Source of the DNA: Escherichia coli
Lineage (GTDB): Bacteria > Pseudomonadota > Gammaproteobacteria > Enterobacterales > Enterobacteriaceae
Length of the DNA: 986 nt
Assembly (NCBI RefSeq): GCF_003334385.1
Contig: NZ_QOWN01000137.1
Strand: one strand, 5' to 3'
Each line of letters begins with the position of its first letter. Position 1 is the stretch's first letter. Positions 1 through 986 of this stretch are shown piece after piece. The position numbers and the translations under genes are program-made. The notes beneath the pieces are model-generated. The model was not told the origin of the DNA, did no database searches, and was given only the letters and a program-made list of their open reading frames with translations.

Positions 1-986
1 GGGCCTGCATCACCTTTGGGACCAGCTGCACCAGCCGGTCCCCGTGGGCCTGCGGGCCCCACTGCACCAGGTGCGCCAGGTTCCCCCCTGTCCCCCTTCG
101 GTCCGGGGACTGCTGCCCGGGTTGCTGCCTCTTCTGCCTTCGTTTTTGCTGCCTGCACTTCTGCCATTACCGCTTTCACAGCCTTTGGGGTTGCCGCTTT
201 TGTTTCATCATCGCTGTTGGTATCGCTGCTCAGCTGTACAACACCTTTCTGTGATGTGCTGGCATCCGGAACACTGGCGACACTGCCTGCGGGACCCGCA
301 GGACCTGCGGGGCCGGTTTCTCCCCGAGGGCCTGCGGGACCTGCCGGACCTGTTGCGCCGGGTTCACCTTTATCCCCTTTCGGGCCGGTTTGCCCTGCCG
401 GACCCTGTGGTCCGGGTGGTCCGGCCTCTCCACGTGGGCCGGTGTCACCTTTCGGCCCCGGCGGTCCGCCCGGGTCACCTTTATCGCCCTTCGGTCCCTG
501 TGGACCTGTTTCTCCCCGTTCTCCCTTTGGCCCCGGCTCACCTTTTGGTCCGACCGCCCCCGTTGCCCCGGCTGGTCCCTGTGCCCCTGTGGCACCCTGT
601 GGACCTGTGTCCCCCTTCTCGCCCGCCGGTCCCCGGGCATTCTCTGCCCGTTTCTTCGCTTCCTCTGCACTCGCCGCCGACGCTTCAGCACGCTTCAGGA
701 TTTCCGCTGCCACCGCTTCCAGCTCTGCAAGCGCTTTCGGGTAATACTGCGCCTCATCCTGTTCCATCAGAAATTTATTCAGCGTTCCCGGCTCAGAATC
801 CGCCTTCACCAGAATGTCACCCACATACGACGGGGCGTACCCTTCCGTGTTCAGCGTCACCCGGTACCACCCCGGCTCCACATCAAAACTGTAACTGCCG
901 GTTTCCCCCGGCTGCCCCTGCGCCACCGTGGTGACTATCACTGTCTCTGTGGTGCGTCGCGCTTTCAGCTCTATGGTGCATCCCGG
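1..986 (-). CDS. stf: Phage side tail fiber protein, Stf-like, with collagen-like Gly-X-Y repeats; internal fragment, partial at both ends (N-terminus lies beyond position 986, C-terminus beyond position 1)
   Basis: Minus-strand frame with codons complementing 984-986 down to 3-5 is open for all 328 codons; I checked it codon by codon. Translation N to C: [328 protein letters not shown]. The N-terminal part resembles, from memory, the N-terminus of phage lambda Stf (CTIQLKARR...SQPGTLNDFL), and the VQLSS...AATPKAVK motif is the phage tail-fibre repeat signature. Codon usage (CTG Leu, AAA Lys, GAA Glu) is enterobacterial. The symbol stf is a family-level assignment, not a specific orthologue. 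No search was run. Confidence 0.92.
3..104 (-). repeat. Collagen-like Gly-X-Y repeat tract 2 (residues 295-328), at least 11 triplets, continuing beyond the window start
   Basis: [34 protein letters not shown] has perfect Gly periodicity from G295 to G328 and is truncated by the window edge. Confidence 0.88.
105..164 (-). other. Region encoding a short Ala/Lys/Glu-rich helical spacer (residues 275-294)
   Basis: [20 protein letters not shown] lies between the fibre repeat and the second collagen tract. Helix prediction is from composition only. Confidence 0.4.
165..254 (-). other. Region encoding a phage tail-fibre repeat motif (Phage_fiber_2-like), residues about 245-274
   Basis: [30 protein letters not shown] closely matches the conserved repeat remembered from lambda Stf and related fibres ([25 protein letters not shown]). 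Identified by eye, not by HMM. Confidence 0.75.
285..632 (-). repeat. Collagen-like Gly-X-Y repeat tract 1 (residues 119-234): 18 plus 20 triplets separated by a single extra Gly
   Basis: Gly occurs at every third residue from G119 to G170, then GG at residues 173-174 (+ coordinates 465-470) shifts the register by one, and periodicity continues from G174 to G234. X and Y positions are rich in Pro, Ala, Lys, Glu, Thr and Gln, typical of bacterial and phage collagen-like sequences. Confidence 0.9.
633..776 (-). other. Region encoding an Ala/Glu/Lys-rich predicted alpha-helical linker, possibly trimeric coiled coil (residues 71-118)
   Basis: Sequence [48 protein letters not shown] has a strongly helix-favouring composition with no Gly or Pro except one Pro. 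Helix or coiled-coil assignment is an inference from composition only. Confidence 0.5.
777..986 (-). other. Region encoding the conserved N-terminal tail-fibre domain (Phage_fiber_N-like, tail-attachment end), residues 1-70 of the window translation
   Basis: Residues [68 protein letters not shown] resemble the lambda Stf N-terminal region as I recall it. Composition is beta-rich and not collagen-like, and this DNA is less GC-biased than the collagen tract. The lambda comparison suggests the true start codon is roughly 15-20 codons beyond position 986. Confidence 0.75.

Follow-up and report, generated by a model that had tools for sequence, protein, structure and literature searches.

We analysed a 986-nucleotide (nt) stretch of Escherichia coli DNA (assembly GCF_003334385.1, contig NZ_QOWN01000137.1), which is referred to below as the window. 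We conclude, with very little doubt, that the window is part of one minus-strand gene, which codes for a side tail fibre of the lambda Stf type and belongs to a P-EibA-like lambdoid prophage of E. coli; the fibre has the domain architecture known as EPclC. An initial annotation of the window had proposed that the real gene is an unlisted minus-strand frame coding for a collagen-like phage tail fibre, and that the three open reading frames (ORFs) listed by a program are shadow ORFs. This proposal is supported. The minus frame is considered to be the real gene because of its domain matches, the existence of a 100% identical annotated gene on the same strand, its codon usage, and the phase of substitutions.

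Six-frame translation revealed no stop among the 328 codons of the minus-strand frame whose codons run from 986-984 down to 5-3, as had been read initially; window bases 2-1 are the beginning of the codon that follows. The remaining minus frames contained 13 and 15 stops, and plus-strand frames 0, 1, and 2 contained 2, 1, and 1 stops, respectively. In mononucleotide shuffles, the minus frame in question stayed open in a fraction of 5e-5, while any of the six frames stayed open in 1.1%. The ORF listing program reports Met-to-stop ORFs only, and leaves out ORFs that run off the ends of the window. It returned exactly 16-744 on the plus strand, 44-934 on the plus strand, and 230-691 on the minus strand, and so, just as the initial annotation had pointed out, misses the true frame.

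The window is 100% identical to positions 198082-199067 of the E. coli 2018-166 chromosome (NZ_CP075632.1), and to stretches of two further genomes. In an excerpt of NZ_CP075632.1 (L001), the identical copy lies within the coding sequence (CDS) of WP_096849294.1 (L001:7950-9512; 520 amino acids (aa)), of which the window makes up codons 18-345. The protein is annotated as 'prophage tail fiber N-terminal domain-containing protein'; the CDS is complete and carries no pseudogene flag from the Prokaryotic Genome Annotation Pipeline (PGAP). The minus-strand features of the window are as follows:

1-986, minus strand: internal fragment of a prophage side tail fibre gene of EPclC architecture (codons 18-345 of 520)
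636-983, minus strand: PfN, prophage tail fibre N-terminal domain, aa 2-117 of the window product (Pfam PF08400, phage_tail_N, 8.7e-32)
633-749, minus strand: short Ala/Glu/Lys-rich linker leading from PfN to the first collagen domain, read from the translation and partly overlapping the end of the PF08400 match
279-632, minus strand: collagen domain 1, 39 Gly-X-Y triplets in two runs, aa 119-175 and 177-236 (Gly-X-Y run search)
456-479, minus strand: GDPGGPPG, aa 170-177, an instance of the GxPGGPxG interruption motif (from the sequence)
135-260, minus strand: Pf2, phage tail fibre repeat 2, aa 243-284, separating the two collagen domains (Pfam PF03406, Phage_fiber_2, 4.7e-16, 1-42/42)
3-104, minus strand: beginning of collagen domain 2, aa 295-328, 11 triplets within the window (Gly-X-Y run; Pfam Collagen 4.9e-5)

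All three Pfam families that had been put forward for this frame (PF01391, PF03406, and PF08400) matched the minus-frame product. On the full-length 520-aa protein, PF08400 was matched over 1-134/134 with an E-value of 2.4e-42. The first ca. 73 PfN residues (window 765-983) are the counterpart of the lambda Stf 'collar' domain, which docks on the tail tube and tip; the N-domain of Ur-lambda Stf (PDB 9e7m/9mgh) matched aa 2-74 of the window product at 3.5e-20. The linker that follows PfN is probably helical, judging by its likeness to the PCoil region of Ghosh et al. 2012 (PMC3368898). The window contains 50 Gly-X-Y triplets, arranged in runs of 19, 20, and 11 (window 462-632, 279-458, and 6-104, respectively). 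Among these triplets, 24 have Pro at X, while Y is Ala in 13, Lys in 10, Thr in 8, and Pro in 7. The repeat is also seen at the DNA level, where G had a period-9 power ratio of 30.6 within the collagen block and of 0.5 within the part coding for the N-terminal domain. Pfam Collagen (PF01391) gave, in addition to the match on the window product, two matches on the full-length protein (3.3e-8 and 6.8e-8), and collagen chains from PDB matched collagen domain 1 with E-values down to 7.5e-76. According to the full-length translation, collagen domain 2 continues past the end of the window to about aa 447. A weak match to the phage Mu-type tail fibre protein S (PDB 5yvq/8ju3) was observed in the Pf2 region. 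Tail fibre families of PHROG matched the minus-frame product, the best being phrog_366 (3.6e-84). A Pfam scan of the full 520-aa protein yielded no match to PfC (PF06820); the protein ends with ...GLFQRAY, and has no LPXTG anchor. No Rfam family reached its gathering score in the window, and the only tandem repeats found there were short (9 nt, ca. two copies), lay within the collagen blocks, and are ordinary for DNA coding for Gly-X-Y.

The collagen-like part of the product also resembles bacterial cell-surface adhesins of the Scl, Lcl, or BclA type (NCBIfam SclB 8.1e-27, Lcl 5.9e-23, SclA 2e-22; PDB BclA 3e-7). These matches are the ground for reading the product as such an adhesin, but those to Scl and Lcl are confined to the Gly-X-Y stretch, and the scores for NF038329, NF046116, and NF038330 (94, 81, and 80 bits) are below the curated cut-offs of 325, 500, and 400 bits, respectively. 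On these NCBIfam cut-offs, the Scl/Lcl reading was rejected. The N-terminus of the protein is a phage Stf collar domain, its gene is located in a tail module after J, and an LPXTG motif is missing; it is thus extremely improbable that the product is a cell-surface adhesin.

Codon usage was scored after training on 12 neighbouring CDSs of the NZ_CP075632.1 excerpt (4,064 codons). The total log-odds was -20 bits for the minus frame; none of the other five scored better than -198 bits, the worst of them reaching -298 bits. The comparison of all six frames that the initial annotation had called for favours the minus frame. Substitutions were collected from pairwise local alignments to homologues from phage 1720a-02 (37 changes) and Stx2 phage I (60 changes). 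The third position of minus-frame codons accommodated 29 of the 37 changes in the first comparison (chi-square P=5e-8) and 40 of the 60 in the second (P=3e-7), and the period-3 pattern persisted past base 744, where plus-strand ORF 16-744 has its stop (19/25 substitutions). Where the homologues differ in length, the indels come in multiples of 3 or 9 nt. The substitutions show that the minus frame is under purifying selection. In the frame of ORF 44-934, 33/37 and 49/60 substitutions would be non-synonymous, and in the frame of ORF 230-691, which has 13 stops across the window, 32/37 and 54/60.

No substantial result weighs against the minus frame as the coding one, although two points qualify these tests. 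Codon-usage scores within the collagen blocks were negative for all frames, and in the 34-codon block at 1-104 another frame was ahead, with -0.23 versus -0.56 per codon for the minus frame. The frame there was assigned from continuity and from Gly-X-Y periodicity. Furthermore, counts of synonymous and non-synonymous changes (23/14) were equal for the minus frame and plus frame 0, and no separation of the two is possible in this way, because the wobble position is common to both. These two frames were told apart by codon usage, by the period-3 pattern beyond the stop of the plus-strand ORF, and by non-conservation of that ORF.

The three ORFs that were listed are as follows:

16-744, plus strand: shadow ORF, 242 aa (P 21, A 19, G 15, and S 13%); no Pfam match, codon log-odds -211 bits
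44-934, plus strand: shadow ORF, 296 aa (P 22, L 17, V 8, and R 8%); no Pfam, PHROG, or NCBIfam match, codon log-odds -199 bits
230-691, minus strand: shadow ORF, 153 aa (R 22, V 12, and Q 10%), out of frame with the true gene; marginal PHROG matches at 1e-4, codon log-odds -233 bits

Their low-complexity compositions (P/A/G/S, P/L/V/R, and R/V/Q) agree with the initial description. Unlike the minus-frame product, the products of ORFs 16-744 and 44-934 were matched by no Pfam family, even at E<=10. Gene prediction is known to yield long antisense ORFs as artefacts where coding DNA is GC-rich or strand-biased. From base composition alone, ca. 5.4 stops are expected per plus-strand frame, versus the 1-2 observed. 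The A content of the plus strand is 10.4% overall and 6.6% in the collagen blocks, and the coding strand is purine-rich, with 10% T. Plus-strand frames rarely encounter a stop because the strand is poor in A, while TAA, TAG, and TGA each require one; the openness of the plus strand is thus a consequence of a coding strand that is rich in purines and poor in T (codons GGN, GAR, AAR, GCN, and CCN). The initial annotation attributed all three ORFs to collagen-type coding DNA read antisense or out of frame. This is true in part: the Gly-X-Y code contributes, but the effect comes from the A-poor plus strand as a whole, and since the plus-strand ORFs also span non-collagen parts, openness reaches beyond the strictly collagenous stretches. 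We conclude that the three Met-to-stop ORFs of the window are by-products, and that coding-strand composition keeps long ORFs open in each of the three antisense frames.

A different view of the plus-strand ORFs is that 16-744 and/or 44-934 are genuine genes, which either replace the minus frame or overlap it in antisense orientation (dual coding). The sole strong match of the ORF 16-744 product was to phrog_26766 (2.5e-39), the product is 66% identical to ORF-8c, an annotated CDS of Stx2 phage I, and 'hypothetical proteins' similar to it are present in the NCBI and metagenome collections. However, phrog_26766 also matches, end to end, an antisense ORF from a record in which every ORF was annotated. 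ORF 16-744 occupies the antisense frame whose wobble position is that of the true frame, and the ratio of synonymous to non-synonymous changes in plus frame 0 is the same as in the true frame, but conservation of this kind follows automatically from the shared wobble position. When compared with synonymous-codon permutations, plus-strand stops were somewhat depleted (2 versus 4.6-4.9 in frame +0, and 1 versus 4.0-4.5 in frame +1; P=0.03-0.04, uncorrected). This deficit is weak and was not accepted as evidence of dual coding: it would fail correction for ca. six tests, and the null model ignores codon context and the non-independence of repeats, which probably account for it. Lack of Pfam matches and poor codon usage (-211 and -199 bits) also speak against the plus-strand ORFs, and so does the loss of their boundaries among homologues: ORF-8c of Stx2 phage I is only 97 aa long, while the ORF of the window has 242 aa, antisense frames of the Stx2 phage I fibre gene ORF-13 contain 5, 11, and 16 stops, and phage 1720a-02 has one more stop in frame +0. 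No antisense CDS was annotated by PGAP among the matches listed from 150 matching genomes, and in the two cases studied in detail, E. coli DEC11C and a Logan contig, the gene opposite the called shadow ORF is frameshifted or truncated. That either plus-strand ORF is a genuine gene is therefore very improbable. Just as doubtful, in our view, is the narrower proposal that the wobble-sharing antisense frame (ORF 16-744 here, ORF-8c and ORF-9c in Stx phages) is an overlapping gene for a Pro/Ala/Gly-rich peptide; if it were one, the slight deficit of plus-strand stops would be explained.

The origin of the phrog_26766 match was traced to Stx2 converting phage I (AP004402.1). In this record, the fibre gene ORF-13 is overlapped by the antisense CDSs ORF-7c, ORF-8c, ORF-9c, and ORF-10c and by out-of-frame sense CDSs, at least six overlapping CDSs being annotated over the fibre gene. 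The same pattern, 'hypothetical protein (x6)', is found in AP005153.1 and AP005154.1. The antisense CDSs, numbered within the excerpt AP004402.1 7732-10946 (L006), are as follows:

615-905, minus strand: ORF-7c, end-to-end match to phrog_23477, 'unknown function'
1253-1942, minus strand: ORF-9c, end-to-end match to phrog_23612, 'unknown function'
1479-1772, minus strand: ORF-8c, 97 aa, phrog_26766 over 1-97/97 (7.6e-57)
1564-2418, minus strand: ORF-10c, end-to-end match to phrog_18077, 'unknown function'

We do not accept phrog_26766 as a family of real proteins, its profile matching the whole of ORF-8c, which lies antisense within the collagen fibre gene ORF-13. All four families (phrog_26766, 23612, 18077, and 23477) are probably shadow-ORF artefacts, and early Stx-phage records in which every ORF was annotated appear to have seeded at least these four.

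A further claim of the initial annotation was that pipelines choosing the longest complete ORF would mis-call the locus on the wrong strand. For intact loci, this was not borne out. In full context, no antisense frame stays open for as long as the true ORF: their longest runs are 261, 334, and 404 aa, and the true ORF has 520 aa. For the 150 complete E. coli genomes with a match, PGAP annotates, among the matches listed, the fibre gene only, and on the correct strand; the phage records examined at this locus likewise have the fibre gene on the correct strand. Current RefSeq annotation thus has the correct strand for this gene. The warning does hold for broken or truncated copies and for records of exhaustive ORF annotation. 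A search of a protein collection of 5.8-billion clusters with the plus-strand ORF product revealed a 240-aa protein (P0001; Logan SRR24001507 contig, L004:909-1631, plus strand), which is 97% identical to it. P0001 was called on the strand opposite an EPclC-type fibre gene. Two frameshifts distribute that gene over three minus-strand frames; they may have arisen in assembly or may mark a pseudogene. The search also revealed 'hypothetical protein ECDEC11C_1927' of E. coli DEC11C (AIGX01000022.1, L005). This protein and a neighbouring call (3001-3807 and 3833-4375, both on the plus strand) are antisense to an EPclA-type fibre gene, which contains a frameshift and is truncated where the contig ends, and the true strand there bears no call at all. 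A protein similar to ECDEC11C_1927 (P0109) was also observed in DEC11E.

Another reading is that the minus frame is a real gene that has decayed, so that it now sits as a pseudogene in a cryptic prophage and no longer makes a fibre. Frameshifted copies of the fibre gene are present in public assemblies, EPcl copies with frame loss are on record in Ghosh 2012 (PMC3368898), and up to seven places per E. coli genome match the window, some of them likely redundant. The frame of the window is nevertheless intact over 328/328 codons, and its 100% identical copy is a complete 520-aa CDS free of a pseudogene flag. Copies that are 99.9% identical occur in phages PhiR12_1, PhiR12_2, and PhiR12_4, whose hosts are, per the records, K-12 or E. 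coli C, and purifying selection is seen in the substitutions. We regard decay of this gene as very unlikely.

The neighbourhood of the gene is that of a phage tail module. In L001, gpJ (4235-7765, plus strand) is followed by the fibre gene (7950-9512, plus strand), a DUF4376 gene, and a gene with a YadA C-terminal domain (YadA-C, Eib-type). The fibre genes of prophage P-EibA and of PhiR12_1 are likewise located downstream of the tail-tip gene J and on the same strand. The gene on the 3' side of the fibre gene codes for a 193-aa DUF4376 protein, whose counterpart in PhiR5_2 is annotated as 'tail fiber assembly protein'. P-EibA has the same gene order, and its orf-401 is 99.0% identical to the window. 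Genes with the YadA C-terminal domain (Eib-type, immunoglobulin-binding) are found at L001:10906-12231 and, in P-EibA, at L002:3918-5096, in both cases in the order fibre gene, DUF4376 gene, YadA-C gene. Judging from this Eib-type gene order, the element to which the window belongs is a P-Eib-like prophage.

Collagen-like proteins of E. coli prophages were sorted by Ghosh et al. 2012 (PMC3368898) into EPclA to EPclD. In Table 3 of that work, EPclC includes P-EibA ORF-401 and a 520-aa protein of ED1a, with collagen domains (Col) of 118 and 117 aa. The GxPGGPxG motif is described in the same paper as conserved in EPcl proteins with two Col domains. Using circular dichroism, analytical ultracentrifugation, and electron microscopy, its authors showed that EPclA and EPclB form trimers and adopt a collagen triple helix. 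They proposed a role as side tail fibres for both, and reported frame loss in several EPcl copies. The window gene has the features of EPclC: PfN, two Col domains around Pf2, a short linker, GDPGGPPG, and no PfC. It shares the order PfN, Col, Pf2, Col with ORF-401 (AAF63232.1) and with the ED1a protein (ECED1_2081); the latter and the product of the window gene both have 520 aa, a first Col domain of ca. 118 aa, and the GxPGGPxG interruption. ORF-401 has 479 aa versus 520 aa here, because its second Col domain is shorter. Apart from this and from small differences in the length of Col1, there is essentially no difference between EPclC members and the window gene. The surroundings are alike as well, with orf-191A in P-EibA and the DUF4376 gene here (191-193 aa) being followed by an Eib-type gene in both.

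EPclA and EPclB, from O157:H7 prophages and Stx phages (ECs2717, Z1483, and ORF-13 of Stx2 phage I), consist of PfN and collagen domains, as does the product of the window gene. The Col-Pf2-Col arrangement of EPclB is like that of the window gene, with 72% DNA identity over Pf2. EPclA and EPclB differ from it in having a PCoil of ca. 109-116 aa and a PfC (PF06820) C-terminus, whereas the window gene has a linker of ca. 40 aa and, by Pfam, no PfC.

With lambda Stf (P03764; PDB 9E7M, 9MGH), the window gene shares a homologous N-terminal collar domain, the Pf2 repeat, and a position 3' of J. Both products are presumed to be trimeric side fibres that speed adsorption. The shaft of lambda Stf is modelled as a coiled coil (proximal, hinge, and distal) and is devoid of Gly-X-Y, while that of the window gene product consists of two collagen-like domains, and the C-terminal receptor-binding parts of the two proteins are unrelated. 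In Ur-lambda (PMC12617516), the place where tail tube and tail tip meet is ringed by a collar of 12 Stf N-domains, and four trimeric side fibres project from there and bind OmpC. The product of the window gene consists of PfN, a short linker, Col, Pf2, Col, and then a non-PfC C-terminal domain. Three chains would trimerise, as in the characterised relatives, and the N-terminal domains would join a collar at the tail tube/tip junction in the manner of Ur-lambda Stf. The Gly-X-Y stretches would then form a rigid, collagen triple-helical shaft with hinges at Pf2 and the linkers, and the C-terminal domain, which is outside the window, would bind a cell-surface receptor, speeding adsorption or setting host range.

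As for the shadow ORFs, they resemble shadow ORFs in general in that open antisense frames are driven by composition, with the best-conserved one sharing the wobble position. The bias here is that of a T-poor, purine-rich coding strand for collagen and Ala/Glu/Lys-rich sequence in a segment of ca. 64% GC, rather than of genome-wide high GC.

The gene itself is already known, work published in 2012 having described such collagen-like fibres from E. coli prophages and studied their biochemistry, and its biology adds nothing new. The practical value of the analysis is small, and amounts to a note for curators; its sole new by-product concerns PHROG families that are probably artefacts, together with a small number of mis-called 'hypothetical proteins'. 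In short windows, a scanner restricted to complete Met-to-stop ORFs will report the shadow ORFs and miss the real gene.

Additional observations were made on the distribution and variation of the gene. At least 80% of the window was matched by only 38 genomes, with a median of three and up to seven matching places per genome. The gene is mosaic: its N-terminal 393 nt (window 594-986) are ca. 90-91% identical in ca. 100 E. coli genomes and in phage 1720a-02, where they are joined to other downstream parts. Collagen domain 1 is polymorphic in length around window 424-441, PhiR5_1 having 9 nt more (CCGGACCAC), which add one G-P-P triplet. P-EibA lacks 3 nt in the same domain, and as a result GPPGPQG is changed to GPRPQG and the Gly-X-Y register is broken; this loss may be a sequencing error in the record, which dates from 2000.

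In PhiR12_1 (L003:4529-6986), the gene after the fibre gene is cut to 126 nt, and on the opposite strand after this remnant lie genes that are, by record notes, those of a transposase/integrase and an ATP-binding transposition helper protein. This arrangement suggests insertion of an insertion sequence (IS) into the DUF4376/assembly gene of PhiR12_1. Finally, a gene annotated as porin OmpC (L001:502-1665) is located within the tail module of the prophage, flanked by genes for a 'phage tail protein' and minor tail protein L. Because side fibres of the lambda type take OmpC as receptor, this phage-borne gene may matter here, for instance in superinfection exclusion.

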